Shown here: positions 4,518 to 28,885 of the stretch, in pieces
Layout of the letters: each line of letters opens with the position of its first letter
Position numbering within the stretch: position 1 is the first letter of the stretch
DNA from: Candidatus Latescibacterota bacterium
GTDB taxonomy: Bacteria > Latescibacterota > UBA2968 > UBA8231
DNA: 64,000 nt
Assembly (NCBI GenBank): GCA_965261395.1
Contig: OZ253462.1
Coordinates: 544,001-608,000, forward strand
Direction of reading: 5' to 3'
Notes under the pieces: model-generated
Told to the model about the DNA's origin: nothing
Databases searched by the model: none
Seen by the model: the letters and a program-made list of their open reading frames with translations, nothing else
Program-made: the position numbers and the translations under genes

Positions 4518-4527
4518 AATCAGCAGC

Positions 4528-4891: not shown

Positions 4892-5806
4892 ATGCAAAAG
4901 ATGAAAAGAAAGATAGCCATATTGTGGTGCAGCATTTTTCTCGTCTTTGGGACCATTTCGATGGCAAGCGCACATTTGCCGCCAGGCGAGTTGTTTTTTG
5001 CTGCACAGTTTCCCGATAACCTAGTTCCTACGATAGATGGGGAACACAGTGATTGGGACATACTACCCGATTCGCCGTACTCGATCTTCAACGATCGACT
5101 TTTCGATCCCGCCCAGTTCCAGCAGGCGGCTCGTGGTGAAGTCGATATATCCGATGCCAATATCCGGCACCGGTTTGGCTGGAATGAGAATTCCAATATG
5201 ATTTTCCTTGCCAGCCAAATTTTCGACAATATCCACAATATCGACCGCTCCTTTGGGGATTGTCACTGCCTCGATGACAACTGGGAAATAGAAATCAACC
5301 CAGATCATTCTGCCAGTGAAGAGCAGAACCTCGAAGGGAATCCCGTCAACAACATCAGTTACAAGTGGGTCGTACCACCACTAGATGGGGTTTATCAGTC
5401 GATTGAGCCCATCGGCGATCTAGCTTGGTTGTCGGATGATACCGAATTCGTCGACATGAGCTGGTCTTTCACCGGTGAACAATTCGGCGAATCGACTTAT
5501 TTCTACGAGATCCGTCTCATTCCGATCGATGCCCTTCCTCGGGAAGGTGCTACCCCGGACAATTCGTCTATCCACGACCTGGAAGAGGAAGAAATCATCC
5601 ATATGTCTGTAACCATGGGTGATATCGACGTCGAACAGGCAAACCATGCCTACAATGGCTTCTGGTCTTTGTCGCCGGAGAGCTGCTGTAAGGGCGTTAA
5701 CGACTTCGTAATGGCACCTGTCGAGCCCGCACTAGAAGATCTGTCTGCTGCTACTGCTGTTGAACAGACTAGTTGGGGGCATATCAAGGCCGGTTTCGAC
5801 CGCTAA
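4892..5806 (+). CDS. Secreted acidic protein (CBM9/DOMON-like) with C-terminal ATAVE..SWGxIK motif
   Basis: Signal peptide (KRKIAILWCSIFLV..ASA), 'PTIDGEHSDW' motif, acidic composition; start 4892 or 4901. Confidence 0.6.
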   Translation: MQKMKRKIAILWCSIFLVFGTISMASAHLPPGELFFAAQFPDNLVPTIDGEHSDWDILPDSPYSIFNDRLFDPAQFQQAARGEVDISDANIRHRFGWNENSNMIFLASQIFDNIHNIDRSFGDCHCLDDNWEIEINPDHSASEEQNLEGNPVNNISYKWVVPPLDGVYQSIEPIGDLAWLSDDTEFVDMSWSFTGEQFGESTYFYEIRLIPIDALPREGATPDNSSIHDLEEEEIIHMSVTMGDIDVEQANHAYNGFWSLSPESCCKGVNDFVMAPVEPALEDLSAATAVEQTSWGHIKAGFDR

Positions 5807-9343: not shown

Positions 9344-10710
9344 GGGTCGATTCCGTATTTCTCAAAACGGCGGTACAGCGCCGCCCGACTCAAGCCCAAC
9401 GCCTGGGCCACTCGGCTGATGTTGCCTTTATAGCGCTCCATGCACTGGACGATCATCGACCGTTCCAACTCGTCGAGGGTCATGGTGCCCGGCGCTGGCA
9501 GGTCGCTCGATCCGCTCTGGCCTTCCTCGGGCTGCATCGATAGGGCCGCGGAGAAATCGTCGGTCCCCAAGACGCGGCTGGGACTCATCAACGCGGTCCG
9601 TTCGACCAGTTGCTTCAACTGGCGGATGTTGCCCGGCCACGGCAGGGTTTGCAGCCAGCTCTGGGCCGCGGCGTCGATCTCCAAGTCGCGGCGGTAGGCT
9701 TGGGCTGCGCCCAGTGCAAAATGGCGTGCTAGCTGCGGGATGTCCTCCGGCCGTTGGCGCAGGGGCGGCAGGTGCAGGACGATGAGGTTGAGGCGATAGA
9801 GCAAATCCTCGCGGAAAGCCCCCGACTCGACCAACTCCAGCAGGTTCTGGTTAGTCGCCGAAATCACCCGCACATCCACTGAACGGGTCTTGCTCGACCC
9901 CAGCACTTCATAGGTCCGGTCCTGCAAAACGCGCAGCAGCTTGACTTGGCAGCTCGGGGCCAAGTCGCCGATTTCGTCGAGGAAGATGGTGCCGCCATCG
10001 GACAACGCAAAGCGACCGGTGCGATCCTGTCGGGCGTCGGTGAAGGCCCCCTTCACGTGCCCGAACATCTCGCTGTCGAATAGGGTCGAGGAAATGCCGC
10101 CGAGATTGACTTTGACAAAGAGCTGATCGCGCCGATTGCTGTTGCGGAAGAGGGCCTGGGCGACTTCGTCTTTGCCGGTGCCGCTCTCGCCGGTGATCAG
10201 CACCGAGGCGTCGGTGGGCGCGACGCGGCTGACGACTTCGAGCACCTTGAGCAGTTGGGGGTCGGCACCGATGATGTTGGCGAAATCGCCTTGGCGGTCC
10301 AGTTCCTCGCGCGTGATGGTGCGCTCGGTGGCTGGCGTTGCCGCGGCCAAGCCCAGCGCCGTTTTCACGGCCTGGAGGATCTGTTTGTTGGTCCAGGGTT
10401 TGGTGACAAAATCCGCGGCACCGGCCTTGATGCCCTGCACGGCCAGTTCAATGGACCCCCAAGCCGTCATCAAAATGACCGGCACACTAGCCCACCGCTG
10501 CTTGATCTCCCGCAACAATTCCATGCCCTCCTCGCCGCTGGTCTGGCGCGAGAAGTTCATATCCTGCAAGACCAGTTCGCACCCGCCGCGCTCCAGCCAT
10601 TCGAGGGCTTCCGCCGGAGACGCAGCGGTCGCGGTCTGGTAGCCGGCCTGCTTGAGCAGCAGGGACAGCGACGTGGTCACGGAAATATCGTCATCTACGA
10701 CTAGGATCAT
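9340..10710 (-). CDS. Sigma54-dependent response regulator (NtrC family)
   Basis: Receiver domain, Walker A GESGTGKD, GAFTDA loop, WPGNIRQL, C-terminal Fis HTH. Confidence 0.95.
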   Translation of the reverse strand: MILVVDDDISVTTSLSLLLKQAGYQTATAASPAEALEWLERGGCELVLQDMNFSRQTSGEEGMELLREIKQRWASVPVILMTAWGSIELAVQGIKAGAADFVTKPWTNKQILQAVKTALGLAAATPATERTITREELDRQGDFANIIGADPQLLKVLEVVSRVAPTDASVLITGESGTGKDEVAQALFRNSNRRDQLFVKVNLGGISSTLFDSEMFGHVKGAFTDARQDRTGRFALSDGGTIFLDEIGDLAPSCQVKLLRVLQDRTYEVLGSSKTRSVDVRVISATNQNLLELVESGAFREDLLYRLNLIVLHLPPLRQRPEDIPQLARHFALGAAQAYRRDLEIDAAAQSWLQTLPWPGNIRQLKQLVERTALMSPSRVLGTDDFSAALSMQPEEGQSGSSDLPAPGTMTLDELERSMIVQCMERYKGNISRVAQALGLSRAALYRRFEKYGIDP

Positions 10711-12004: not shown

Positions 12005-14455
12005 TTACTCTACAGTAACTGCTCCCCCAAAATCAAAACGCACCAAACTCAACCCCGCGCTCCAGCCGGGCCGGTCCAAGCGCCGGGTGAAATCGAGGCG
12101 CAGCAGATGGTACAGCATGAGCGAGACCCCTACCTCATGGTGGAAACCCTCCTCGTAGCGCGGGTCGTATCCTAGGGCGGCCCGCCGCTCTGAATCAATC
12201 CACGTCCGCCCTGAAGCCCCATGCACCACCAGCCCCGCGCCCCGCATGGCCCAACCCCACAGCCCCAATAGCTCAAAGGGCGTGGTCTTGAAGTTGTGCT
12301 CCCAATACAGAGCCGCGTAATGTTGCCCTTCATGGGGATGACCGCGAACCGTGCGGAAGGTTCCAAACGGCGAGAAAAAGCCCATGCTGGCCTCCAAGGA
12401 TCCAAAGCGCTGCACTGGCACATCGCCGATCGAGTACCCCGCCACCAGCCGCACATCGAGCGCGTTGGGCGTGAAGCGGCGCTTGAGGAAGGTCTTGAAA
12501 TGGCCGTCCAAGGCTAGGCGCAAGCGGGTGAAGGAAAAGTCGCTGCCCAACCCAGCACCGCTGTGCTCCACCCCCACTTCGACCCGCCGATTGGCCGTCA
12601 TTCCAAAAGGCTGGTACGGCCCGCCCCATTCGAGACCCGCCTCTACTGAGCGCAGCCGACCTTCCTCAATAGCCGGATTGGGCCGCGGCCTCCAGTTCCG
12701 ATTCAACAGGCTGAAAGCGGTCGTTTCCCGTAGAGAAGAATGCGCCTCGTAGTTAAAGCCCACTTGCAAGCCGACCTGGCTCGGTAGGGAAAGATGGACC
12801 CGCGCTCGCAGCCTTTCGTTCCAGTAATAATCGAAATAGTCATCTAGGCCCAGCAGGAACTGGCCGCTGTTGAGCAAAAGGGGATAGCTGTCTGAAGGAA
12901 TGCGCGGCACCGGCCCTCTCCCGTACTCCAGAACCACCCTACCCGCTGTCCGCTGCCAGCCGACCCGGCCCCGGTAAGACCAGCGTTCCAGACCAATGTT
13001 GTACCCGGTACTACCGCCGGCCTCCAGTCCGCCGAACAAACTCCGGTTCCCCTCCAGCCCCAGATGCGCCCCACCCACCCGGTCGTATCTCAAAGCAGGC
13101 TTCAGTCCGATCTGTCCTAACCAGCGCGACGACTCCGCCTGCTCCTCCGTCTCTTCCTTTACCTGCTCCGTCTCTCCCTTGACCTGCACTGCTTCCTCCT
13201 CCACCAAAAAACGGGCGAGAAAGCCCGTCGGCTGAAAGGCCTGTTCGAACTGCATGGTGCTGTCGATGGTGGCATAAGCCGCTTGTTCCCGCGCTGACAG
13301 GGGCACCTTGTCGGCCAGCCGGACAAAGGAACTGTCCTGGGCCACGGCCAGCGAATCGACCCGCAGCACTTCCTCGCTGGCGTAGAGCGAGTCGGGCATA
13401 TCGACATTGACTTGGTAATCGCTCAGCCGCGTCACCACATTGTATTTGATCGCGGGAAAGTGCAGCCCCACCATGCTGATTTTTATTTCCATAGAGGCTC
13501 GGTAATCGACCGGCAGCCACACCCCTCCGGCAAAGCCGCGGAACTGTTGTTGGTAGGCGAAATCCATGTGCTCAATCAGGGGCAGGGGAATGGCCGAGGC
13601 GGTGGTCGCCCGGCTGGGTGCCAGCTCTACTTCGAGCAAGGCGAAATCCTCGTCCAATACTGCGACACGGCCGGCAAAAGCGGCTTGCAATTTATTTTTT
13701 GGCTCAACCGAAATGTCGAATACCACCTTATCATCTAAATAGCGTTGGCCGATCAAGCGGAAGTGGTAGTGCTTGAGGGCATCGGGATGGGTCGGCCCGA
13801 TCAGCGTATGGCTGATAAAGGGGATATCGTCGTCGTAGAAATTCGTAAACCCCTCCAAGGCCGAGGTGTATGCTTCGTGAGAATCCAAATTTTGGGTCAC
13901 ACGCCTCGACTTGACCACTTCGCGCAGCCCCTGCTCCCGTTCCCAGTAAATCTCCGAGGCCAATTCGCCGATCCTGACGATGCCTTCCTCGTTTTCCAAA
14001 ACCCGCCGGGTATAAGCCTGTGCCTGATAGCTGGCTAAGCTGGGCCGCCACGCTTGTTTGCGGCGGATGACTTGGCGCATGATACCCTCGGCTGAGGTTT
14101 CGGCAGTCACCACGATGGGATCGAACAGAAAGGGCACTGGCGTCAAGGCGAAATCGACCCGTTCCGCAGGGGTCGTCAACGCGCGGTCTTGGGAGACGTA
14201 GCCGATATAACTCACTTTCAATGTCGCCGGTAGCTGCTGCACCTTGAGCGAGTACTCGCCCTCGTCATTAGCTATAGTCCCGCGATAGGTGCCGGCTAGC
14301 TGTACCGTAGCCGCTGGCAGGGGCTGCCCGGTGACCGCGTCGATGACGGTGCCGCGCACCAACCACGGCTGGGCATGGACTGCGGGAACGGTCCATAAGG
14401 CAGCCAAGATGGCCATCGTCAAAAGCAAATTCGCGTTAATCTTTTTGCAGTCCAT
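12005..14455 (-). CDS. CarboxypepD_reg-like + DUF5686-type outer-membrane protein
   Basis: 'VRGTVIDAVTGQPLPAATV...GTIANDEGEY...VSYIGY'; beta-strand-rich C-terminus. Confidence 0.75.
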   Translation of the reverse strand: MDCKKINANLLLTMAILAALWTVPAVHAQPWLVRGTVIDAVTGQPLPAATVQLAGTYRGTIANDEGEYSLKVQQLPATLKVSYIGYVSQDRALTTPAERVDFALTPVPFLFDPIVVTAETSAEGIMRQVIRRKQAWRPSLASYQAQAYTRRVLENEEGIVRIGELASEIYWEREQGLREVVKSRRVTQNLDSHEAYTSALEGFTNFYDDDIPFISHTLIGPTHPDALKHYHFRLIGQRYLDDKVVFDISVEPKNKLQAAFAGRVAVLDEDFALLEVELAPSRATTASAIPLPLIEHMDFAYQQQFRGFAGGVWLPVDYRASMEIKISMVGLHFPAIKYNVVTRLSDYQVNVDMPDSLYASEEVLRVDSLAVAQDSSFVRLADKVPLSAREQAAYATIDSTMQFEQAFQPTGFLARFLVEEEAVQVKGETEQVKEETEEQAESSRWLGQIGLKPALRYDRVGGAHLGLEGNRSLFGGLEAGGSTGYNIGLERWSYRGRVGWQRTAGRVVLEYGRGPVPRIPSDSYPLLLNSGQFLLGLDDYFDYYWNERLRARVHLSLPSQVGLQVGFNYEAHSSLRETTAFSLLNRNWRPRPNPAIEEGRLRSVEAGLEWGGPYQPFGMTANRRVEVGVEHSGAGLGSDFSFTRLRLALDGHFKTFLKRRFTPNALDVRLVAGYSIGDVPVQRFGSLEASMGFFSPFGTFRTVRGHPHEGQHYAALYWEHNFKTTPFELLGLWGWAMRGAGLVVHGASGRTWIDSERRAALGYDPRYEEGFHHEVGVSLMLYHLLRLDFTRRLDRPGWSAGLSLVRFDFGGAVTVE

Positions 14456-18272: not shown

Positions 18273-19528
18273 TGCTTCCTCCTTCTGAGAGCTTCTACGA
18301 TATGCAGGCGCGACATTCTCCAAGCCGGATAGATGCCGGAAAGCAGACCGAAGACTAGGGTTATCACCAAGCCGTAGAAAAAGATGCGATGGTTCAGGTG
18401 GAATTCGGCATATTGCACAATGTCGCTGGCACTGAGTGCTTGTAGGACGAGAAAAGTAAGCACCAGCCCTAAAGCACCGCCCAAGAGCGTGAGAATCACG
18501 TTCTCCACCATGAATTGCCCCACTAAGGTGCGCGAAGAGCCGCCGAATGCCTTGCGTACCCCGATCTCAGAAGCGCGCTCCAAGATGCGAGTGCTGTTGA
18601 TATTGACCAAGCTGACCACCGGCAGGAGCATGAAGAGCAACCCCAGACCGCCAATCATCAAGAACATCGCATCGGTAGTCCCGGCGTCGAAGTCCCTGAA
18701 CACGAGCATCATACGCGCAGCCTCTTCTAACAGCGTCGCAGGGCCGCCGATGAGGCGATTGGTCTGATCGGGATTGGGATATTCGACCCGGGTGAGCACA
18801 TCGGCGAATTCCTCTTTGATAAGCGGTACTTCGGCCGCATTGCGCGCCAAGATCAGCGCCTGAGAGTTGCCGAATATCGAATCATAATGCAGGTACTCGT
18901 CCGTTTCGCGGGTGCTGACGGGCACCCAGAGATCGGCAAAGGACACGATGCGGAAGGCCGGCACGTTGGGCACGACCCCTACCACGCGAAAAGGGCGTCC
19001 TTTGACTTCGATGTACTGCCCCACGGCCTGCTCTCCCCCGAAAAACACCCGGCGCGTCTCCTCATTGATCACGGCCACCCGTTGGGCTTCCTCTACTTCC
19101 TTTGTGGTATAGGGACGCCCTTCAAGGAAATCGAATTCGAGTATCTCCCAGAACACTCCGTCCGTGTACTTGAGGTCGGATTCGATCTTCACGCCCTTGC
19201 GATACGTAACTTCCGGGGACCAGAAGTCTGTGGAAATGGACACCTTTTCCGCATGATCCAGCGAGGACACATACCGTTCCAAAAAGGCGTAGCTAGGTGC
19301 CCGGATATACATGCCTCTGTCATCCGTGTTTTTTCCTGTGAGCATCTTCAGAACGAGCGTGCGATCCGACCGCGTCTCCGGCGGGAAGGAGCCAAAGACG
19401 TGGTCGAACAAGGCCGTCGCCACCATCATTACCATGAGCGTGAAGCTGATGGTAACGAGGCTGATGCAGGTAAAGACCTTGCGCCTCAGCAGAACCTTGA
19501 GGGCCATTTTGATATAGTTCTTTAGCAT
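18269..19528 (-). CDS. ABC transporter permease (MacB/FtsX family)
   Basis: 'MLKNYIKMALKVLLRRK', 'EIGVRKAFGG', 'YPAWRMSRL'. Confidence 0.92.
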   Translation of the reverse strand: MLKNYIKMALKVLLRRKVFTCISLVTISFTLMVMMVATALFDHVFGSFPPETRSDRTLVLKMLTGKNTDDRGMYIRAPSYAFLERYVSSLDHAEKVSISTDFWSPEVTYRKGVKIESDLKYTDGVFWEILEFDFLEGRPYTTKEVEEAQRVAVINEETRRVFFGGEQAVGQYIEVKGRPFRVVGVVPNVPAFRIVSFADLWVPVSTRETDEYLHYDSIFGNSQALILARNAAEVPLIKEEFADVLTRVEYPNPDQTNRLIGGPATLLEEAARMMLVFRDFDAGTTDAMFLMIGGLGLLFMLLPVVSLVNINSTRILERASEIGVRKAFGGSSRTLVGQFMVENVILTLLGGALGLVLTFLVLQALSASDIVQYAEFHLNHRIFFYGLVITLVFGLLSGIYPAWRMSRLHIVEALRRRKQ

Positions 19529-19541
19529 TTTCCTCCTCCTT

Positions 19542-20207
<666 letters not shown>

Positions 20208-20218
20208 GGCAGTCTCCT

Positions 20219-21487
20219 TTATTTTATCTGGACTTCGTCCAAGTGCAGGTAGTCTTTCACATCCGAGATGATTACCTCGTCGCCTTCGATTAATCCCTCC
20301 TCCACCTCGTAGTACTCGAAATTGGCAATGCCGATGCGCACCTCGGTCTTCACTGCGGTTTGGCCGCGCACCACAAAAACCTCGTGCAGGCCCGCCCGCC
20401 CGCTGATGAACGGCCCCCGCTTGAGGCGCAGGGCGCGGTCCTTGCGCGCGGTGACGATATAGGCGTCCACCCGCTGGTTGGGCCGCAGCAGCGCGTGCGC
20501 TGAATCCTCTAGCTCGACCGCAAGCTGGATGATCCCACCTTCGACCGTAGGCAGGATGCGGGCGATGTGGCCCTTTACGTATTCTTCCTCATTAATGCGC
20601 AGGCGCACCCACAGCCCGGTCTGGAGCCGGCGGGCGTGAATGTCGGAAACAGTGACATCGACGCGGAATGAGCTGAGGTCGGCGATGCGGGCGATTTCCT
20701 GGCCTTGGCTGATGGAAGCGCCGACTTCCGGCGCAATCGCGGTGAGCACGCCATCTCTATCGGCGCGGATGTGGGCGCGCTCCAAGCGACGGCGGGCCTC
20801 CTCGACCTCGCGTTCGAGGATATTCATTTCCAATTGCAGGGCTTCCAACTGCGCCTGAGTGGATTCGACGAGGTTGCGGCGGTCTGCTTCGAGTTGCTGC
20901 AATTCAATCTCAGCGCGCTGTTCTTGCAGGTGCGCTTGGCTCAACTCTTCCTCGGAAACCGCGCCAAAACCCTGTAACTCGCGGAGCTGCGCGGTGCGGG
21001 TCTTAAAACGCTGAAATTCCAAGTCTTTCAACCGCCAGCGCGTGTCTAGGTCGCTCAGCTTTTTGCGTTCGTCCAATTCGAGTTGGGTGCGGCGATTCTG
21101 CTTGAGGGCCAGTTCTTCGGCCCGTTTCTCGACATCGAGCCGCGCTGCGTTCAAGTCCAGTTCGACGATGGGCTGTCCCTGCTGCAACATGGCTCCCGGC
21201 TTTTGCAGGATGCGCACTAGCCGCGTATTGACGGGGCTAAAGATGATCTGCTCGAACTGGGGTACCACCGTGCCCGAAGCGGTAATCGTCTCTTCCACCG
21301 CGCCCCATTGCACCTGCGCGGTGCGAATGCGGTCGGGGTCCAGCGCCGGCCTGATCCAACTGGGCAACCAAACAGAGAGCCAGAGGAGCGCAGCCACTCC
21401 CACCACCGAATAGGCAATGCGTTTGCCGCGCTGCCGTCTCAGGAAGGTCGGATCTACTGGGCGATCCATTGTATTCATGGGTTTCAT
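20219..21487 (-). CDS. Efflux periplasmic adaptor (HlyD/MacA-like)
   Basis: N-terminal TM, 'TITASGTVVP', long coiled coil, 'GLIEGDEVIISD'. Confidence 0.9.
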   Translation of the reverse strand: MKPMNTMDRPVDPTFLRRQRGKRIAYSVVGVAALLWLSVWLPSWIRPALDPDRIRTAQVQWGAVEETITASGTVVPQFEQIIFSPVNTRLVRILQKPGAMLQQGQPIVELDLNAARLDVEKRAEELALKQNRRTQLELDERKKLSDLDTRWRLKDLEFQRFKTRTAQLRELQGFGAVSEEELSQAHLQEQRAEIELQQLEADRRNLVESTQAQLEALQLEMNILEREVEEARRRLERAHIRADRDGVLTAIAPEVGASISQGQEIARIADLSSFRVDVTVSDIHARRLQTGLWVRLRINEEEYVKGHIARILPTVEGGIIQLAVELEDSAHALLRPNQRVDAYIVTARKDRALRLKRGPFISGRAGLHEVFVVRGQTAVKTEVRIGIANFEYYEVEEGLIEGDEVIISDVKDYLHLDEVQIK

Positions 21488-21510
21488 ACCTCCGCTTGTC
21501 CATTACCTAC

Positions 21511-21525
21511 GCAAGTTCCGTGCCA
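21511..21525 (-). promoter_or_regulatory. Sigma54 -24/-12 promoter
   Basis: Minus strand reads TGGCACGGAACTTGC (TGGCAC-N5-TTGC), just upstream of the adaptor gene. Confidence 0.9.
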
Positions 21526-21579
21526 ACGCGACAAATGGTTGTTTTTACTCAAGTTATATTTTTAGAGACAAAGCATTTT

Positions 21580-21616
21580 CGTCCGCTTTTGAACACTCAC
21601 TGTTCATTTTCGGACA
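21580..21616. promoter_or_regulatory. Candidate upstream activator sites for the NtrC-family regulator
   Basis: CGTCCG-N4-TGAACA (21580-21595) and inverted TGTTCA-N4-CGGACA (21601-21616), separated from the promoter by an AT-rich tract. Confidence 0.55.
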
Positions 21617-21644
21617 GTCGTCCGGAATGGGGAGGGCGTAAAAA

Positions 21645-21670
21645 AGGGCACCCACAAGGGGTGCCCCTAC
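21645..21670 (-). repeat. GTAG-type REP palindrome, possibly also the terminator of the PhyH gene
   Basis: Minus strand GTAGGGGCACCCCTTGTGGGTGCCCT followed by a T run. Confidence 0.65.
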
Positions 21671-21702
21671 AGACACAATGAGAAACGAAATCGGTGCGGA
21701 AC

Positions 21703-22506
21703 CTATTCGGACCGGGCGACCCAATGGCGGAACAAGGGCTGGACCGGGGCGGGCAGCTCGGCGAAAACACCGGCGGGCAGCGACGGCACGGCGTTTTCCT
21801 TAATGCCGGTTTCTTCGGACAAGCGTCGGCGCTCGTCGGAACCGGGGCGCAAGACCTCGACATTGAGCCACCAGGGAGCGTAGCGCACAACTACAGAGGT
21901 GCGTGGTTGGTGCGAGCGGTTGGGCGCGGTCGCGTGCCACAGGCGGCTGTCGAGCACGAGCACGCTGCCGGCTGGACCGCAGGCGTTTACTTCCGTGGGA
22001 TAAGGGGCCAGCGGATCGACGCCATTGTCGCCGGTGGGGTTGTTCGGGGACCGGTGGCTGCCGGGGACTAGCAGGGTGCCGCCGTTTTCCTCGGTAAAAG
22101 GGGCCAGCATCCACAAGGTGGTCAAGTGGACCGTCGCATCGGGATACGGCGCGGGGATATGGCCGGCGTTGTTCTGGTTGAAGGGCCAGTCGGCGTGCCA
22201 GCCGCCGCGCTCGTTGCCCGGGTGGTTGATCGTGCCGGTGGTGAAGGATATGCGCGGATGCGGCCCCAGCATTGCGCCGACCAAGGCGAGGAGATTTTCA
22301 TCCGCGAGAAAAGGCGCAAAGGACTGGTCGAAGTTGATCATGCCCGGCAAATGGCCAATGCCGGGTGGAGCTACGGGATTGCGGTGCGCTGCAACCGTGG
22401 CCTCGACGCTGCGGCGCACGCGCTCAATCTGGTCGGCTGGGATGACGCCTTCGACCACGCACCAGCCGTCTAGTTTTAGGTGCAGAAGTAGTCGTTCTAA
22501 TTGCAT
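21703..22506 (-). CDS. Phytanoyl-CoA dioxygenase (PhyH) family 2OG-Fe(II) oxygenase
   Basis: 'WHADW', 'NGGTLLVPGSH', 'RLWHA'. Confidence 0.9.
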   Translation of the reverse strand: MQLERLLLHLKLDGWCVVEGVIPADQIERVRRSVEATVAAHRNPVAPPGIGHLPGMINFDQSFAPFLADENLLALVGAMLGPHPRISFTTGTINHPGNERGGWHADWPFNQNNAGHIPAPYPDATVHLTTLWMLAPFTEENGGTLLVPGSHRSPNNPTGDNGVDPLAPYPTEVNACGPAGSVLVLDSRLWHATAPNRSHQPRTSVVVRYAPWWLNVEVLRPGSDERRRLSEETGIKENAVPSLPAGVFAELPAPVQPLFRHWVARSE

Positions 22507-22650
22507 AGCTCACTCCCTGTCATCGGCTATATATAATAGAATAGACTTTTGTCGGGGGCGAGCGGCAAGAGAGTAGCTTGACAGTGAAGGGGTGGTCGTG
22601 GAGTTTGGAGCCGGTGTAGAGCGCATGTCAATTTTTTTGGGGACTGGCGG

Positions 22651-23514
22651 ATGAGTATGGAAGGGGCACCGCCCCTCTGGTTAGTGCTGCCGCTGCTGAT
22701 GGAATTCGGCTTTGGGCAGGTGTTCAAATGGGCCACGCAACAGCGTTGCTACGCCCCGACCGTGGTATCGACCAACTATTGGGTCCTATCTTCCATTCTG
22801 CTGCTCTATCTGGGATTCACCGGACAATTGCACATACCGGCCGCAGCAATAAAGGTCGGCGCAATCACCGGCGCGGTCTTCATCAGCTCCATGCTGTTGA
22901 TGACGCGCTTGTTGCGGACCTTTCGCGTGGCCTCGGTGTTGACCGCTTTCCGGTTGGCCATTGTCGTGCCGGTGGGGCTGGGCGTACTGCTGTGGGATGA
23001 GCCGTTGGGCGGCCTCCAGCTATTGGGATTGGGCTTGGCGTTAGTGGCCGTTTTGTTGATGTCGCGGCACGCTGGGCACCATACCAATGTTCCGCGCTGG
23101 ATCGCCACGGCGCTGCTGATCTTGGTTTTCGGTATCCAGGGGATGAGCACTTCCTGTCTGCGCTGGGTGCATTACGCCGGCTTGGACGATGCGTATTTAC
23201 AAGTGCTCATGGTCATCGGCTTTACCGCTGGGACCATTGGGGCCACTGTGTTGTTGTGGGAGGCGCGGCAGCGCATTCGGCGCTTCGATCTGGCGGTGGG
23301 GGCTGGCATCGGAGTGTACAATCTGCTCGCCTTAATGGCCGTGCTGATCTCGCTCAAGCACGTGCCGGGCACGGTATTTTTCCCATTGGTGGGCTGCGGC
23401 GTCGTCATTTTGGACAATGTGACGGCACCGCTGTTGTGGAAAGAGCCGCTCAGTCGGGCGGCCGTTTTGGGCGTGGGCGTGGGCGTGCTGGCGGTAATTT
23501 TGGTAGTTCAATAA
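22651..23514 (+). CDS. DMT/EamA-family transporter
   Basis: About 10 TM helices in two repeats ending 'LWDEPL' and 'LWKEPL'. Confidence 0.8.
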   Translation: MSMEGAPPLWLVLPLLMEFGFGQVFKWATQQRCYAPTVVSTNYWVLSSILLLYLGFTGQLHIPAAAIKVGAITGAVFISSMLLMTRLLRTFRVASVLTAFRLAIVVPVGLGVLLWDEPLGGLQLLGLGLALVAVLLMSRHAGHHTNVPRWIATALLILVFGIQGMSTSCLRWVHYAGLDDAYLQVLMVIGFTAGTIGATVLLWEARQRIRRFDLAVGAGIGVYNLLALMAVLISLKHVPGTVFFPLVGCGVVILDNVTAPLLWKEPLSRAAVLGVGVGVLAVILVVQ

Positions 23515-23539
23515 AACTAAGCGACGAGGAGTGTGAATT

Positions 23540-24679
23540 ATGAGTAAGCGCTACAAAGCCGGAGTCATCGGGCGCACGGGTGCCGGCGACTATGGCCACG
23601 GGCTGGAAACCGTTTACCGGGACTTGGAGCAAGTGGATTTAGTCGCTGTGGCCGACCCCGATCCCGAGGGCCGCGCCGCAGCCGGCGAGCGCACGGGTGC
23701 CCAGCGGCTCTACGCCGATTACCGCCAGATGCTCGCCGACGAGGACTTGGACATAGTCAGCGTCTGTCCGCGGATGCCCGACTGCCACGCCGACATGGTC
23801 ATCGCCTGTGCCGAGGCCGGGGTGCGCGGCGTGTTTATCGAGAAGCCGCTGACGCCCTCTCTGCGCGAAGCCGACGCTCTGTTGGCGGCCTGTCAGGAGC
23901 ACGGCGTCAAGACCGCGGTGGCGCACCGGCGCGCCAATCCCTACGAGCAGTACGGCAAAAAGCTGGTTGACGAGGGCGTTATCGGCCAGCTACAAGTGCT
24001 GCGCAGCCACGGCAAGTCCGACCACCGGGCTGGGTCTCAGGATCTGATGGTCTTGGGCACGCACATGATGGACAGCATGCGCTACTTTGCTGGGGCCGAG
24101 GTGGCTTGGGCCCACGGGCACGTCACGCAGGATGGGCGCGAGGTGACGTTGGCCGATGTGCGGGAAGGGGACGAGCGCATCGGCTTGATCGCCGGCAACG
24201 GGGTGGCGGCGTACTACGTTTTTGCGAACGGAGTGACCGCGCATTTTGAATCGCAACCGGGCTATCCAAAAGGGCACAACAGCCGTTGGTTCGGTTTTGA
24301 GGCACACGGCAGTGAGGGCATCATCGCCCTGCGCAATTCGCCCAACGGCGAGATGTACATCTATCGCCAAGGCTTGTGGATCCCCGGCGAGGAAAACGGC
24401 ACTTGGGAACGGGTGTTGTTGGACGAGTGGGAACAATACTCGGCGGGCGAGCGCACGCACCAGAGCAATTTGATCATTGTGCGCGAATTGATCCAAGCCA
24501 TTGAGGAGGATCGCCCGGTGCGGGCCTGTTCCAGCGGCGAGGACGGGCGAGCGGCGCTGGAAATGATCATGGCGGTACACGAGTCGCAGCGCTTGGGCAC
24601 GCGGGTGTCTCTGCCTTTGGCGAATCGGGAGAATCCTTATGAGATATGGCGGCGGCAGGATGGAGAGAAGGCGACATAG
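23540..24679 (+). CDS. Gfo/Idh/MocA oxidoreductase
   Basis: 'VAVADPD', 'LYADYRQML', 'FIEKPL', 'GTHMMD'. Confidence 0.9.
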   Translation: MSKRYKAGVIGRTGAGDYGHGLETVYRDLEQVDLVAVADPDPEGRAAAGERTGAQRLYADYRQMLADEDLDIVSVCPRMPDCHADMVIACAEAGVRGVFIEKPLTPSLREADALLAACQEHGVKTAVAHRRANPYEQYGKKLVDEGVIGQLQVLRSHGKSDHRAGSQDLMVLGTHMMDSMRYFAGAEVAWAHGHVTQDGREVTLADVREGDERIGLIAGNGVAAYYVFANGVTAHFESQPGYPKGHNSRWFGFEAHGSEGIIALRNSPNGEMYIYRQGLWIPGEENGTWERVLLDEWEQYSAGERTHQSNLIIVRELIQAIEEDRPVRACSSGEDGRAALEMIMAVHESQRLGTRVSLPLANRENPYEIWRRQDGEKAT

Positions 24680-24928
24680 GCGTTTGTCGCTTGCCAGAGA
24701 AATGTACATTAGGTGTGTTGACTCTCGGAAGGACCGTGCTATCTCAAGTTATTGCAAGGAGTTACGTAGAATATCCCAACCTCGCGGTATTGGTTGCGAC
24801 TGTTTACGCGGATACGTACCTTCGGGTCAGATGGGGATAATTACCCGAATCAATTGTTCGGGTACGAATAGTTAAGCGAACCTAGGTTATAATGACGGGT
24901 ATATAAGGCCTAATAAAGGAGCCAATAT

Positions 24929-26248
24929 ATGACTGCTGAAGTCCTGATTATGAATCGGAATGGAATCGCCCTAGCAGCAGATAGTGCAGCAACTATAACA
25001 GACGGAACAGAGTTTAAGAAAATCTATAACTCTGCTAATAAGCTATTTGCTTTATCAAAATGTCATCCCGTTGCTATCATGGTATATGGTAGTGCTTATA
25101 TTATGGGCATTCCTTGGGAGACTATTATAAAGGGATATCGACGTGAGTTGGGTGATACCAATTTTCCTACAGTAGCAGATTACGGTCAAAATTTCAGAAC
25201 ATATCTTCAAGAGAAAGCATGTGATCAAGAATCCTATTCTTCTTATGTACGCCAACAGTCAAAATTCTTAATATCTAACATCTTGTTAGAAGTAGATGAA
25301 AAGGTAAAAAATATAATCGAAGGAGAAGGTGACATTACAATAGATCAAATTCAAGAACTCCACAAAGAGGCTATTGATCGGAATTATAAAAATATTAAAT
25401 CCATACAACAGTCCGCAAAGATCGAGACATCTCAAGTCAAGTCATCTATTGATAAATATAGACAAGAAATTAAAGACCTCTATAATAGTTTAGCAGGTGC
25501 TCGTCCAATACTGCCACAACAAAAACGAAAGATTGTAGAGTCGGCTATCCTGTTTTCCATATTCCATCCAGGTCTTTCAAAAAGTGGAATTGTAATAGCT
25601 GGATTTGGAGAGGATGAGAAATTTCCTCATGCTATATCTTGGGAAATTACAAAAATAATTGATAGATTAGTAAGTTCCGAACAAACTTATGACCGAAAGA
25701 TAACTATTGACGTCAATGCTGTCTTACAAGCATTTGCAGAGAGAAACGAAGTCGATTCATTTATGAAAGGTTTAAGTACCAGATTTTCTAACTTCCTAAC
25801 AGATGATCTTGGTAATGTGTTTACGAGCGATTTTGGCAACAAGATCGCTACAGCTTTAGCAGAAGACGGTGAAGTGGATCCCCAAAAACTCGATAGCATA
25901 GGAAAAAAGATAACTACTGTTGGCCAAAATATATATGAGTCTATTTTAAATCAGATATTTGATATTTCTCTAAAGGAATTCTCTAACCCAGTTCTAGAAG
26001 CAGTCCGTTTCTTCACTCCAATTGAAATGGCTAACATGGCTGAGACACTTGTTGACTTAGAATCATTTCGAAATCAAGTGACTCTTCGTAGTGAAATAGT
26101 TGGGGGACCTATTGATGTTGCTGTTATTACTAAAGGCGACGGATTTATATGGATAAAACGAAAACACTATTTCCAACCTGAACTCAACCATCAGTTCTTC
26201 TACAACTACAATCAACGAAAGGCAAACGATGGAAACGAAGACGATTAA
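24929..26248 (+). CDS. Ntn-hydrolase / proteasome-beta-like protein with putative Thr1 nucleophile and large insertion
   Basis: 'MTAEVLIMNRNGIALAADSAAT', 'NKLF', C-terminal 'VGGPIDVAVIT'; AAAGGAG RBS; AT-rich. Confidence 0.65.
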   Translation: MTAEVLIMNRNGIALAADSAATITDGTEFKKIYNSANKLFALSKCHPVAIMVYGSAYIMGIPWETIIKGYRRELGDTNFPTVADYGQNFRTYLQEKACDQESYSSYVRQQSKFLISNILLEVDEKVKNIIEGEGDITIDQIQELHKEAIDRNYKNIKSIQQSAKIETSQVKSSIDKYRQEIKDLYNSLAGARPILPQQKRKIVESAILFSIFHPGLSKSGIVIAGFGEDEKFPHAISWEITKIIDRLVSSEQTYDRKITIDVNAVLQAFAERNEVDSFMKGLSTRFSNFLTDDLGNVFTSDFGNKIATALAEDGEVDPQKLDSIGKKITTVGQNIYESILNQIFDISLKEFSNPVLEAVRFFTPIEMANMAETLVDLESFRNQVTLRSEIVGGPIDVAVITKGDGFIWIKRKHYFQPELNHQFFYNYNQRKANDGNEDD

Positions 26249-26372
26249 AAATATGCAAGAATATTATGCGATGATACGCACAAAACCTCCTAAAAAAGGA
26301 GTTAATAAATACGCTGAAATAGGTAAGCAACTGGGATTAGTTGTTACAAAAGGGCCAAAGGAACTCAAGTAA
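26229..26372 (+). CDS. Small basic protein (47 aa), not in the ORF track
   Basis: METKTIKNMQEYYAMIRTKPPKKGVNKYAEIGKQLGLVVTKGPKELK; overlaps the upstream gene end; AAAGG upstream. Confidence 0.45.
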   Translation: METKTIKNMQEYYAMIRTKPPKKGVNKYAEIGKQLGLVVTKGPKELK

Positions 26373-26395
26373 AACCTACGCCTTACTTGAGTTCC
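26360..26395 (+). terminator. 13-bp perfect hairpin
   Basis: GGAACTCAAGTAA / TTACTTGAGTTCC with a 10-nt loop; no T tail. Confidence 0.45.
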
Positions 26396-26401
26396 AGATT
26401 C

Positions 26402-26445
26402 GCTTAACATCCCATTGACGCAGCGCTGCCATACGGCGGCTGGGG
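26402..26445 (+). other. Truncated attC-like site
   Basis: R'' GCTTAAC is the exact reverse complement of GTTAAGC at 24871-24877; residual hairpin GCTGCC/GGCGGC. Confidence 0.5.
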
Positions 26446-26450
26446 TCGAA

Positions 26451-27380
26451 GTGGACCTAAACATTGCAGTCCGGTCACTCATCACGATGGCGGCACCGGA
26501 GCGGAGCGACGAGATCGCAGAACTCTGGAGTCGGTACTCGCCATCATTTGATGAAGCTTCCGACAGCGGTAGATTCCACATGGAAGCAGGACCGTTTGGG
26601 CTCGTGCTCCTCACACCAAGATCAATGTGGATCTCTTGGCTGCTGACGCACGAGGCATGGGCTACATTGGACTGCTATAGTACGATGCTGGTGCTGCTGG
26701 ATCTCTCTAAGGAATCAGTCCGGGCGAGTTTTGGGGTTCGTCTTCGTGCACTTGTCGACCAAGTGGATGTGGAGAGGCAGGTTGATGACATTGCACAGAA
26801 GGTGGATGAACTCAGATCCGGAGTAGATCTGCGCGACTTTGAATGGTCAAGAACCGTACCAATCCCATCTATCGATCGGCCTAAGGAGACGTTGAGAGCA
26901 GCACAGCACGATCTCTCTTGCTTGTTGCTGGCCGTAATGTTTCTCCACGAGGTTCGCCATGTTATGGAGCGAGATGAGGCCGAAGAGCAGCTCTCCTCAA
27001 TTGAAAGGGAGCACCGCTGTGACGCATTTGCTCAGGATTTTCTCATGGAGCGCCTCAGTAGCTACGCTCAGCGTGAGGGCTATGACAAGAGTAAGGTCGC
27101 CTCAAAGAGAGCTATCGCACTAGGTATCTGGTGCTACGCTATTCACAGAATTGTGGGAGAACATGAGTCAGAGTCGCATCCGCCGCCAAGCGCCAGACTA
27201 CGGAGGATGTTGTCGGCGCTAGAACTTCCACCATATGATAAGTTCTGGATAGTCATGGCATCATTGCTCGTCAACCAACTACGAGCTTCGAATTATCTCC
27301 CTGCTAGTGTGAGTTCAACCTCACTGAGTGACCTTGTGTGTGAACTTCTTGAGATAGTTGAAGGCATTGAAGGTGGTTGA
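26451..27380 (+). CDS. Phage exclusion protein Lit-like metallopeptidase (peptidase U49)
   Basis: 'FLHEVRHV' HExxH, 'EHRCDAFA', 'SHPPPSARL'; start 26415 or 26451. Confidence 0.7.
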   Translation: MDLNIAVRSLITMAAPERSDEIAELWSRYSPSFDEASDSGRFHMEAGPFGLVLLTPRSMWISWLLTHEAWATLDCYSTMLVLLDLSKESVRASFGVRLRALVDQVDVERQVDDIAQKVDELRSGVDLRDFEWSRTVPIPSIDRPKETLRAAQHDLSCLLLAVMFLHEVRHVMERDEAEEQLSSIEREHRCDAFAQDFLMERLSSYAQREGYDKSKVASKRAIALGIWCYAIHRIVGEHESESHPPPSARLRRMLSALELPPYDKFWIVMASLLVNQLRASNYLPASVSSTSLSDLVCELLEIVEGIEGG

Positions 27381-27393
27381 ATGAGATGGCGTT

Positions 27394-27590
27394 GCCTAGC
27401 ATGTGATTGAGCCGACAGTGTTGACAGTTGTTCCGAAGCTTTGTGCTCGTTACCTCAACCACTGAGTGACTCAGCGTTGGTTCACCGTGTTGGCTTGGCG
27501 CATCTGAGCCGATAGTGACTCCGCCCGCAGGTTTCCACCCCGCATACGCGGGGTCGTATATGGGTAGCCGTTATACGCAAACAGTTAGGT
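27394..27590 (+). other. Degenerate or fused attC-like region
   Basis: GCCTAGCATGTGATTGAGCCGAC resembles an attC left arm; CCCCGC-ATAC-GCGGGG hairpin; GTTATAC (27570) and GTTAGGT (27584). Confidence 0.5.
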
Positions 27591-27647
27591 TCGTAGACTC
27601 ATAGACTATCTGTGCAGGTATTAGGCAGAGCTGTCAGGAGATGCCAA

Positions 27648-28073
27648 GTGAAAGATCAGCTAGATAGCGTAAGATGTTTTCATGAGGTGTTCCAGGGATA
27701 TATGGAGCGCACGCCCACTGCAATGGTGCCTGCGGAGATAAGCGAAGGGCGTACCCAGATGTTTTTGGAGGAGCTAGAAGAGTATCGAGCGGCCGTGAAT
27801 AACCACGACATCGTCGAGATCGCAGACGCCCTTACAGACATGCTTTACGTACTGCTGGGTACGTTCATCACGCATGGTTTGCAGGACATCGCCGAAGAGC
27901 TCTTTAATGAAGTCCACCGCAGCAACATGAGCAAGCTAGATGAGCAGGGTAAGCCAATATTCAGGAGGGACGGCAAAGTATTGAAGTCAGATCAGTTTTC
28001 AGAACCAGATTTGCGATCGATCATAGCGAAGATTGGTCCAGTTGAGTCAGAAGGCATGGAGGTCACGGGATGA
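27648..28073 (+). CDS. MazG-like all-alpha NTP pyrophosphohydrolase
   Basis: 'EELEEY...EIADALTDMLYV', 'EVHRSNMSKL', 'DGKVLKS'; AGGAG RBS. Confidence 0.85.
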   Translation: MKDQLDSVRCFHEVFQGYMERTPTAMVPAEISEGRTQMFLEELEEYRAAVNNHDIVEIADALTDMLYVLLGTFITHGLQDIAEELFNEVHRSNMSKLDEQGKPIFRRDGKVLKSDQFSEPDLRSIIAKIGPVESEGMEVTG

Positions 28074-28294
28074 ATGAACGAATCATAATCGATCCCTCGA
28101 TCCGTCATGGCAAGCCGGTGATTCGGGGGACCCGAGTGCCAGTGCACCGAATTATTGGGAGCCTCGCAGGAGGGGCAACCCCAGAAGAAGTCTGTGAGGA
28201 ATATGGCATTACCGACGCGGATATAGGGGCCGCTCTTGAGTACGCGGAGGAACTCGTGGAAGCAGAAGAAGCTCATCCCCTACCTGCGTCCTAA
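28070..28294 (+). CDS. DUF433 antitoxin
   Basis: 'RIIIDPSIRHGKPVIRGTRVPV...EEY..ITDADIGAALEYA'. Confidence 0.92.
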   Translation: MNERIIIDPSIRHGKPVIRGTRVPVHRIIGSLAGGATPEEVCEEYGITDADIGAALEYAEELVEAEEAHPLPAS

Positions 28295-28559: not shown

Positions 28560-28610
28560 GTGAGCCGGTTGGCACGATCCAGACTAACGATGCTCCGGGA
28601 GGCACGATGA
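28560..28610 (+). pseudogene. C-terminal remnant of a RelE/Gp49-like toxin
   Basis: 'LARSRLTMLREAR-stop' with ATGA overlap into the antitoxin. Confidence 0.45.
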
Positions 28611-28885
28611 AAAGACATGTCGGCAGCAGCTTTGATGAGTTCCTCACAGACGAGGGCCTTCTCAGTGAAGCAGAGGCAACGGCCGTCAAACGCGTTATTG
28701 CCTATCAGTTGAGTCAGTTCATGGCGGAAAACAAGCTGTCCAAATCGGCGATGGCCAAGCGCATGCAAACCAGTCGGTCAGCGCTGGATCGTCTGCTTGA
28801 CTCGTCCAATCCCTCCGTAACGCTACAGACCATGGACCGCGCTGCTCGGGCTCTGGGCAAAAAGCTCCGCATCGAGCTGAGCTGA
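28607..28885 (+). CDS. XRE/HigA-like HTH antitoxin
   Basis: 'HVGSSFDEFL..EG', 'MAKRMQTSRSALDRLLD', 'VTLQTMDRAARALG'. Confidence 0.88.
   Translation: MKRHVGSSFDEFLTDEGLLSEAEATAVKRVIAYQLSQFMAENKLSKSAMAKRMQTSRSALDRLLDSSNPSVTLQTMDRAARALGKKLRIELS

Follow-up and report, generated by a model that had tools for sequence, protein, structure and literature searches.

The beta subunit of the 20S proteasome, HslV, Anbu and BPH belong to peptidase family T1. A survey carried out by computer described 22 groups of proteasome homologues as new (Fuchs, Alva & Lupas 2021, PMC8665760; this paper and PMC7980362 are cited throughout for selected sections), among them the 'Proteasome homologs with Multiple Insertions' (PMI). 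PMI-3 and PMI-4 bear long insertions at two sites, after H1/H2 and between H3/H4, and section 3.3 of the survey argues that insertions so placed are incompatible with ring assembly. PMI-4 is an abundant group, represented by 501 sequences at 90% identity and spread over many bacterial phyla, Euryarchaeota and phages, and its authors report having found no genomic context or co-occurrence that would point to a function (PMC8665760). Connectase, for its part, is a monomeric proteasome homologue that works as a sequence-specific ligase (PMC7980362; PMC8665760). Here we describe a relative of the PMI proteins encoded on a 64,000-nucleotide (nt) stretch from a Candidatus Latescibacterota bacterium (GenBank assembly GCA_965261395.1, contig OZ253462.1, positions 544,001 to 608,000, forward strand), hereafter called the window, whose numbering is used throughout. 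An AT-rich insert at window positions 24871-26408 encodes a protein of 439 amino acids (aa), predicted to be a threonine peptidase of the proteasome-beta type, and, in an overlapping open reading frame (ORF), a basic protein of 47 aa. Judging from sequence conservation, the small ORF is a real, conserved partner gene, of a kind that accompanies the enzyme gene across bacteria, archaea, phages and satellites and encodes a hydrophilic protein of ~50-60 aa. The segment is a horizontally acquired, self-contained two-gene module and may be a mobile conflict module, serving phage defence by abortive infection or else addiction, a reading in which we place moderate confidence.

What places the 439-aa protein among the proteasome homologues? 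Its AlphaFold2 model, computed from an alignment of 36 sequences (predicted local distance difference test, pLDDT, 83.6; predicted template modelling score, pTM, 0.77), shows a beta-sandwich core broken by two helical blocks at approximately residues 100-212 and 273-384. The first block (helices 100-133, 138-162, 167-189 and 196-212) is modelled between the first helix pair and the strand at 219-225, the second (helices 273-280, 284-312, 318-360 and 364-384) between the strands at 264-268 and 395-401. Comparison of this model with 48,161 chains by VIA-align returned 20S proteasome beta subunits as the top matches (Z 16.6-17.0, root-mean-square deviation 2.8-3.6, 177-187 residues aligned), followed by Anbu (Z 15.8), BPH (12.9), HslV (12.3) and connectase (10.7), with other N-terminal nucleophile (Ntn) hydrolases scoring lower; in Foldseek, proteasome subunits made up all of the top matches (best E 1.2e-4). 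Model residue 2 is superposed on chain residue 1, the catalytic Thr, of mature 20S beta subunits, and an hhalign comparison with PrcB of the same genome, which was located with PF00227, likewise put T2 on Thr1, D18 on Asp17 and K38 on Lys33, in a weak match (E 0.043). Within the family, T2 is conserved in at least 90% of 36 sequences; in the 36-member alignment D18, S19, K31, K38, G220, D396 and G403-D404-G405 are invariant and the N-terminus is nearly so, and the N-terminus reads [M/V/L]-T at 78 of 80 genome loci, the remaining two being cut by contig ends. Removal of the initiator Met before Thr is well established and, since the 439-aa protein has no propeptide, it would expose the Thr as the N-terminal nucleophile. 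On this model the protein is predicted to be an Ntn hydrolase of the proteasome-beta/HslV type whose mature position 1 is Thr.

An earlier note, made from the sequence alone, had proposed an Ntn hydrolase with an N-terminal Thr and a long central insertion, and the model (Z to 17.0), with its large helical insertions, agrees with it. The AT-rich segment, its GTTAAGC and GCTTAAC ends, the TATAAT hexamer, the 439-aa ORF, the overlapping 47-aa ORF and a 13-bp hairpin, from which that note had started, are all where it had placed them. The inverted repeat at the two ends proved longer than had been described (12 of 13 bases), and the protein begins MTAE...ALAADS as reported; the stretch VGGPIDVAVIT, by contrast, which had been taken for the C-terminal end, occupies residues 391-401. 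In a protein atlas the clusters returned at 0.98 were all unnamed, and a single one, at 0.89, bore PF00227, to be taken as a lead only. The same genome also encodes a bacterial 20S pair, PrcA as the alpha subunit and a PrcB-like beta subunit that has a propeptide (G000:C1:3795454-3796980; L189 1408-2933), and, as it has a proteasome of its own, the PMI-type homologue is an addition to it and not a replacement.

With the 20S beta subunits, HslV, Anbu and BPH the protein shares the predicted alpha-beta-beta-alpha Ntn sandwich, the Thr at mature position 1 and the Asp and Lys at positions 17 and 33. It differs from them by ~230 extra residues in two helical insertions, by having no match to Pfam PF00227 at E <= 1 and no propeptide, by the lack of any associated AAA+ partner gene in what was seen, and by its sporadic, mobile distribution. 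With PMI-4 and PMI-3 the protein has in common a proteasome-like core with Thr1/Asp17/Lys33 and no propeptide, insertions both after H1/H2 and between H3/H4, and a large family scattered over many bacterial phyla, archaea and phages, the match being set by architecture and distribution and not by alignment to the representatives HDY66466.1 and OGZ26396.1. The protein family is, then, already known, having been catalogued in 2021, and to that extent the earlier note's candidate new module is not new; neither a function nor a gene context is reported in the sections of that catalogue considered (PMC8665760), and the conserved pairing with a small downstream partner and the carriage on mobile elements are what the present analysis adds to it. 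Connectase (the MJ0548 family) offers a further parallel: it too is a divergent homologue of the proteasome, it works by itself on one specific protein substrate, and its fold matches the model (Z 10.7). It differs in lacking H1/H2 and in bearing an insertion between S3 and S4 (PMC8665760), in being confined to methanogens and in having no small partner gene described.

The case for the partner gene was built on 160 loci, 80 from genomes of many bacterial and archaeal phyla and 80 from metagenomes; a metagenome scan with the single protein had found no relative, and it was the scan with an alignment of close relatives that gave the 80 metagenome loci, only 2 of which fall in the close subfamily. 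At most of the genome loci a same-strand ORF of 45-90 aa begins at or near the stop codon of the large gene. A hidden Markov model (HMM) built from 45 of these downstream ORFs and applied at E <= 1e-3 matches directly downstream of the enzyme gene at 57 of 77 usable genome loci and nowhere else in a set of 9498 ORFs; it does so again at 57 of 75 usable metagenome loci, none of which had been used in training, with no match elsewhere among 4070 ORFs. Most of the loci that it misses still carry a small ORF at the same position, with a weak score. A conserved small downstream ORF, for which the earlier note had proposed to look, is thereby found. At 44 of the 57 genome loci that the HMM matches, the small ORF in its longest frame begins no later than the end of the stop codon, an upper bound, as longest frames may over-extend. 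The 47-aa protein of the window (10 Lys, 1 Arg and 5 Glu) is of a divergent subtype that is common to the closest relatives of its enzyme: it is 38% identical to the ORF behind the closest metagenome homologue (L107, whose enzyme is 50% identical) and 27-30% identical to the ORFs behind three further loci (L108, L001 and L002), and in a joint alignment of partners it has both near-invariant columns, a Glu and a Gly. No Pfam family matches the partner, and a small-protein profile run against the PDB gave nothing significant.

The enzyme family is large, with 7561 of 8000 scored candidates reaching E <= 1e-3 and, at 50% identity, 5005 representatives, 2002 of them below 1e-30; the members listed are mostly 410-455 aa long and nearly all align from residue 1. 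Genome loci place it in many bacterial phyla, in methanogens and in other archaea. A phage protein family of unassigned function, phrog_5990, matches the 439-aa protein end to end (E 1.1e-94), and tblastn found the gene in 10 plasmid records and in 13 phage or satellite records, of which 9 are Streptococcus phages or satellites, 2 are from Stenotrophomonas, and 1 each from Providencia and Porphyromonas. The Streptococcus satellite Javan103 has the pair at its end, the lambdoid Providencia phage PSTRCR_117lys has it between the Q/Dam genes and the lysis genes, and in both of these an annotated small coding sequence follows the enzyme gene. Distribution among close relatives is patchy: the gene, single-copy in this genome, occurs in none of 30 other genomes of the same genus and in 3 of 30 further genomes of the family and class. 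In one of these three, a same-class genome, the homologue falls apart into two frames that cover query residues 1-230 and 263-432 (L193/L194, G057:C1:2301210-2302470) and is probably a decayed copy.

The G+C content of the gene lies below that of both 3-kb flanks at 70 of 78 loci, by more than 3 points at 55 of them and by 8 points on average. The immediate neighbours show no conservation over the 80 genome loci, a given Pfam family turning up in at most 3 of 140 neighbours, and the pair is therefore autonomous. A fused or longer form was met once among 6729 candidates, as a 1017-aa protein with TPR repeats that its source names adenylate cyclase (P0258) and that may be a rare fusion or a gene-calling merge; with this as the one longer relative, fusions give no functional hint. 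Terminal inverted repeats were considered as a family-wide trait and rejected, the best flank-to-flank repeat averaging 10.8 nt over 73 loci against 10.2 in shuffles; repeats of at least 13 nt occur at 6 loci, and at 18 loci a shuffle reaches that length.

How is the pair embedded in this particular genome? The insert stands out by composition: in 300-nt windows the G+C fraction of 24850-26349 is 0.33-0.39, while the left side has 0.53-0.71 and the right side 0.49-0.58; taken by segment, 24884-26395 has 0.361, 20000-24700 has 0.606 and the following gene, which encodes a Lit-like peptidase, 0.527. The word GTTAAGC occurs just twice in the 64-kb window, at 24871-24877 and as its reverse complement GCTTAAC at 26402-26408, where 5.6 copies would be expected by chance. 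Two further inverted repeats of comparable quality lie within the same 1.8 kb, and it is only because both arms coincide with composition boundaries that the terminal repeat is notable; by a rough estimate, which is an inference, chance would place both arms at such boundaries a few times per thousand.

The earlier note had taken 24871-26408 by itself as the cassette. What relatives and metagenome contigs have or lack is a larger unit of ~2.7 kb, in which the Lit-like gene is included; this gene adjoins the pair, as that note had recognized. The site is surrounded by ordinary genes, upstream those for an ABC transporter, HlyD, PhyH, EamA and a GFO/IDH/MocA oxidoreductase, downstream a mandelate-racemase-like and a BNR gene, and comparison with 40 relatives reveals that the region behind the GFO gene is hypervariable. 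In one relative (G004) the GFO gene and a ~140-bp element are followed directly by a pair of MazG-like and DUF433 genes (query positions 2-1329 and then, 3 bases later, 4033-4519), and in another (G012) MazG lies 144 bp behind the GFO gene. From this empty-site layout the insert can be delimited as ~24872-27571, comprising the two-gene module and the Lit-like gene, with AG|TTAAGC as its left junction and CG|TTATAC as its right one. Metagenome read depth is 2-19 across 24905-27566 and hundreds on both flanks, with a step at 27567; one metagenome contig joins 24881 to 27607. A contig of a ~93%-identical variant spans 25884-27565, which means that module and Lit-like gene are linked in that variant too. 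Neither the Ntn module alone nor the Lit-like gene alone was seen in the 40 relatives or in 4 metagenome runs, contigs being unable to show absence. The Lit-like gene matches NCBIfam PRK09672 ('phage exclusion protein Lit') with E 2.3e-32 and 112 bits, below the 274-bit cut-off, and the Lit model of PADLOC with E 1.8e-7. Its G+C fraction (0.53) differs both from that of the module (0.36) and from that of the genome.

The left edge of the insert falls exactly at the 3' end of a genus-specific ~140-bp repeat, of which this genome has one full copy and 3 fragments. Among the relatives, four of the five searched have 4-8 full or partial matches per genome and the fifth has one; the copies are 75-87% identical and often lie co-oriented, 1.5-6 kb apart, in variable loci with differing cargo (in L097, for instance, at 4904-5078, 9368-9477, 13486-13612 and 19195-19321, and also in L098, L099 and L101-L106). 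Conservation stops at ...AGTTA, and new DNA starts there. The repeat was also tried as a structured RNA or an attC site and rejected, its consensus fold reaching only -8.1 kcal/mol with 1 compensatory pair and no Rfam match. The cargo of the repeat loci in relatives, 86 proteins in all, includes 7 GNAT, 6 MazG-like, 5 HAD, 5 NUDIX and 3 glyoxalase proteins, 2 ThsB-TIR proteins and 2 transposases, together with one each of HEC-01, UzuA and an AbiEii-like ATPase. The local company of the module consists, then, of the adjacent Lit-like peptidase and, at the same locus in relatives, of ThsB-TIR, HEC-01, UzuA and AbiEii-like genes among others.

How would a conflict module of this kind work? Its first gene encodes a predicted Ntn hydrolase of ~435 aa of the proteasome-beta/HslV branch, with helical insertions after H1/H2 and between H3/H4, whose Thr nucleophile would be exposed by Met removal and whose Asp and Lys, at the proteasome Asp17 and Lys33 positions, leave the predicted catalytic triad intact; the second is translated from a frame overlapping or abutting the stop codon of the first. 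The threonine protease would be the effector, and the small protein would bind it as a restraint or an adaptor, in place of the missing propeptide or gate. Once this restraint is lifted, the enzyme would cut a specific cellular or viral protein, and the unit would be kept because it protects its carrier, by abortive infection or exclusion, or because it stabilizes it, by addiction. Proteolytic activity, binding of the partner by the enzyme and the role in defence or as a toxin are all things that we infer here, and the present data do not separate defence from addiction. A bolder version of the same idea, which we put forward tentatively and regard as doubtful, would make the pair an autonomous module for immunity or addiction that is widespread, and would make it the first conflict system of prokaryotes to use a proteasome-family threonine peptidase as its effector. 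The partner, produced in step with the enzyme, would plug or gate the propeptide-less active site, and infection, or loss of the element, would free a protease, or a transpeptidase like connectase, to cut a specific protein that is either essential or viral.

Both versions have parallels in known systems. With Lit of e14 and with other protease-based exclusion or toxin-antitoxin modules the pair shares the format of a small mobile module that has a peptidase as its presumed effector and resides in prophages, satellites or variable islands, the catalytic class being Thr Ntn here and zinc HExxH in Lit. As in type II toxin-antitoxin pairs, the two genes are adjacent, co-oriented and, to judge from their 20-nt overlap, translationally coupled. 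Most such pairs have the other gene order and a DNA-binding domain, in contrast to the toxin-first, small-partner-second order seen here and the lack of any DNA-binding domain.

A good deal weighs against a conflict role. Neither protein is matched by any PADLOC, Pfam or NCBIfam model, and none of the families of PADLOC-DB 2.0.0, a library of 2023, was hit by either at E <= 1, in line with the earlier note, which had recognized no named defence system. The link of the enzyme to proteasomes is not significant at the level of sequence alone (PDB profile E 0.24, to archaeal beta subunits; hhalign E 0.043; nothing significant in a PDB sequence search with the 439-aa protein by itself); the Ntn assignment rests on the predicted structure. 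The literature searched holds no work on the function of the family beyond the 2021 catalogue and no experimental work on it. At the 80 genome loci the neighbours are mostly unrelated housekeeping or metabolic genes, only a handful being restriction-modification or Fic genes, and no defence-island enrichment was demonstrated among them; of the two things that the earlier note had proposed to look for in the neighbourhoods of homologues, the conserved small ORF was thus found and the enrichment in defence genes was not. The variable locus of the relatives, in turn, holds mostly GNAT, HAD, NUDIX, MazG and glyoxalase genes and not defence genes. The small-ORF HMM fails to match the 47-aa protein of the window itself, whose homology to the main type of partner is argued from its position, from the four closer relatives and from the alignment with its two near-invariant columns. 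Finally, the structure prediction of the enzyme together with the 47-aa peptide, suggested in the earlier note as a check, gives their complex weak support: the score is 0.56 (best of 3 controls 0.00), above a mark that 58 of 80 solved complexes and 2 of 110 mismatched pairs reach, in a range (<=0.60) that holds only 7 of the 80 solved complexes and both of the passing mismatches, with at least 44% of contacts agreeing between runs and a partner pLDDT of at least 53.

Could the pair, instead of serving its host, serve the mobile element that carries it, be it as an anti-defence protease directed at host immune proteins or as a regulator of the phage or satellite life cycle? Its presence in 13 phage or satellite records, its membership of a phage protein family, phrog_5990, and its placement at the end of a Streptococcus satellite and between the Q/Dam and lysis genes of a lambdoid Providencia phage would all fit. 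However, most of the 160 loci have no phage genes beside the pair, and here it occupies a chromosomal variable locus next to a Lit-like exclusion gene with no phage around; moreover, prophages also carry host-protective accessory genes at such phage positions. Taken together, we consider service to the element unlikely. A role resembling that of connectase is also conceivable, the enzyme acting as a specific ligase of peptides, as a transpeptidase or in processing, with the small protein as its substrate and not its regulator. Connectase is itself a monomeric proteasome homologue with sequence-specific ligase activity (PMC7980362; PMC8665760) and matches the model with Z 10.7, the insertions are placed where ring assembly has been argued to be precluded (PMC8665760), and 10 of 20 main-type partners have Asp-Pro at one column (alignment A4). 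The partner in the window and those of its closest relatives lack this Asp-Pro, though, 20S beta subunits and Anbu score far above connectase, the helices H1/H2 that connectase lacks are present in the model of the 439-aa protein, and neither cleavage nor ligation is among the results, all of which makes the proposal improbable. The proteasome-type fold and catalytic residues, and the housekeeping nature of many neighbouring genes, might even suggest an ordinary quality-control protease like HslV or Anbu that has merely diverged; such a role is very improbable for a gene that was found in none of the 30 other genomes of the genus, has a lower G+C content than either flank at 70 of 78 loci, travels on phages, satellites and plasmids and is a minority variant in metagenomes, in a genome that already has a PrcB/PrcA proteasome.

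A different question is by what route the unit arrived, and the earlier note had read the segment as an integron cassette. In the canonical form IntI would have inserted such a cassette at a GTTRRRY core site, and the cassette would bring along an attC of its own. The locus does look cassette-like: GTTAAGC stands at the left edge of the AT-rich part and GCTTAAC, which fits RYYYAAC, at its right edge, G|TTA borders the ~2.7-kb insert at either end (GTTAAGC at the left junction, G|TTATAC and GTTAGGT at the right), and in relatives this locus consists of variable genes arrayed in one orientation with the ~140-bp repeat between them. GNAT, glyoxalase and NUDIX proteins, which are part of this array's cargo, are typical of chromosomal integrons. 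As far as can be told from the sequence, however, it is on the defining features, IntI and attC, that the canonical integron fails. None of 5 matches to the integron integrase model TIGR02249 in the 6.55-Mb genome exceeds the 265-bit cut-off, the best having 82 bits and lying ~3 Mb away and none being close to the window, no integrase was found near the ~140-bp repeats, and no plus-strand GTTRRRY occurs between 26409 and 27375, the next being at 27376, which leaves no attC behind GCTTAAC. The ~140-bp repeat folds weakly and is not an imperfect palindrome as attC would be (it has three GTTA and no TAAC on one strand), GTTRRRY words occur in the window at chance frequency (102 found, 93 expected), the gene ahead of the first repeat, both in the window and in those loci of relatives that were examined, is the conserved GFO/IDH/MocA oxidoreductase gene and not an integrase gene, and inverted repeats round the module do not exceed shuffled controls at 72 other loci. 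We consequently regard a canonical cassette as extremely improbable. The likeness to integron cassette arrays and to clusters of attC sites lacking integron integrases (CALINs) lies in variable co-oriented genes between ~140-bp repeats, in the G|TTA junctions and in the GNAT/glyoxalase/NUDIX cargo; the difference lies in the missing IntI, in a repeat that is not an attC-like palindrome and in units of 1.5-6 kb with several genes. The genus may keep such units in integrase-less cassette arrays built on the ~140-bp repeat with G|TTA junctions.

Table 1. Positions of the features of the insert and its borders in the 64-kb window
Feature	Position	Strand	Remarks
Copy of the genus-specific ~140-bp repeat	24735..24873	+	ends ...AGTTA; insert starts exactly at its 3' end
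Inverted repeat, left arm	24871..24883	+	contains GTTAAGC, fits GTTRRRY; 12/13 bases complementary to 26396-26408
TATAAT hexamer	24888..24893	+	35 nt 5' of start codon
Ribosome-binding site AAGGAG	24916..24921	+	7 nt ahead of ATG; read from sequence
Gene for 439-aa protein	24929..26248	+	predicted proteasome-beta-like Thr1 Ntn hydrolase with two helical insertions; PMI-4/PMI-3-like
Gene for 47-aa basic partner	26229..26372	+	20-nt overlap with upstream gene; GAAAGG at 26217-26222
Perfect hairpin	26360..26395	+	arms 26360-26372/26383-26395, 13/13 pairs; spans stop codon of small ORF
Inverted repeat, right arm	26396..26408	+	contains GCTTAAC; AT-rich/GC-rich boundary
Lit-like gene (peptidase U49-like, HExxH)	26415..27380	+	in ~2.7-kb insert, outside conserved two-gene module
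Right junction of ~2.7-kb insert	27570..27590	+	G|TTATAC, then GTTAGGT, then sequence common to relatives

The features that may govern expression of the pair are collected in Table 1 with the other coordinates. A consensus scan found no paired -35/-10 elements (sigma-70-type) at the TATAAT of position 24888, with counts at the level of shuffles, and the earlier note's description of the module as self-expressed is not upheld by it; among 24 sequencing runs listed, there was no RNA run that contained the segment. A consensus terminator scan found no plus-strand terminator in the insert, again with counts at shuffle level. The hairpin at 26360-26395 has a folding energy of -20 kcal/mol (z -4.0), none of 200 shuffles folds equally well, and no T run follows it; over 24600-26500 no credible Rfam family was detected.

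Two observations concern the surroundings. Downstream of the insert, a MazG/PRA-PH-like pyrophosphohydrolase gene overlaps a DUF433 gene and is followed by a gene with a Cro/C1-type helix-turn-helix (27612-28294 and 28607-28885), and in many genomes of the same genus the MazG/DUF433 pair adjoins the variable site. Near the start of the window, at 2-2239 and 2352-4517, adjacent ORFs of 745 and 721 aa are apparent tandem paralogues, with identical GTTRRRY words recurring at an offset of ~2278 nt.

What would follow if a conflict module, or something else of a specific kind, is indeed encoded here? The conserved partner gene makes the function of the family cheaply testable, where the 2021 catalogue, in the sections considered, had no genomic context to offer (PMC8665760). 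Should the enzyme turn out to be a specific ligase or processing enzyme, it might become a useful tool, as connectase did. If the pair serves defence or addiction, a new catalytic class would be added to such systems. Proteasome-type enzymes are known as housekeeping degradation machines, and a mobile, fixed pair with a protein of ~60 residues points to a quite different use of their fold.

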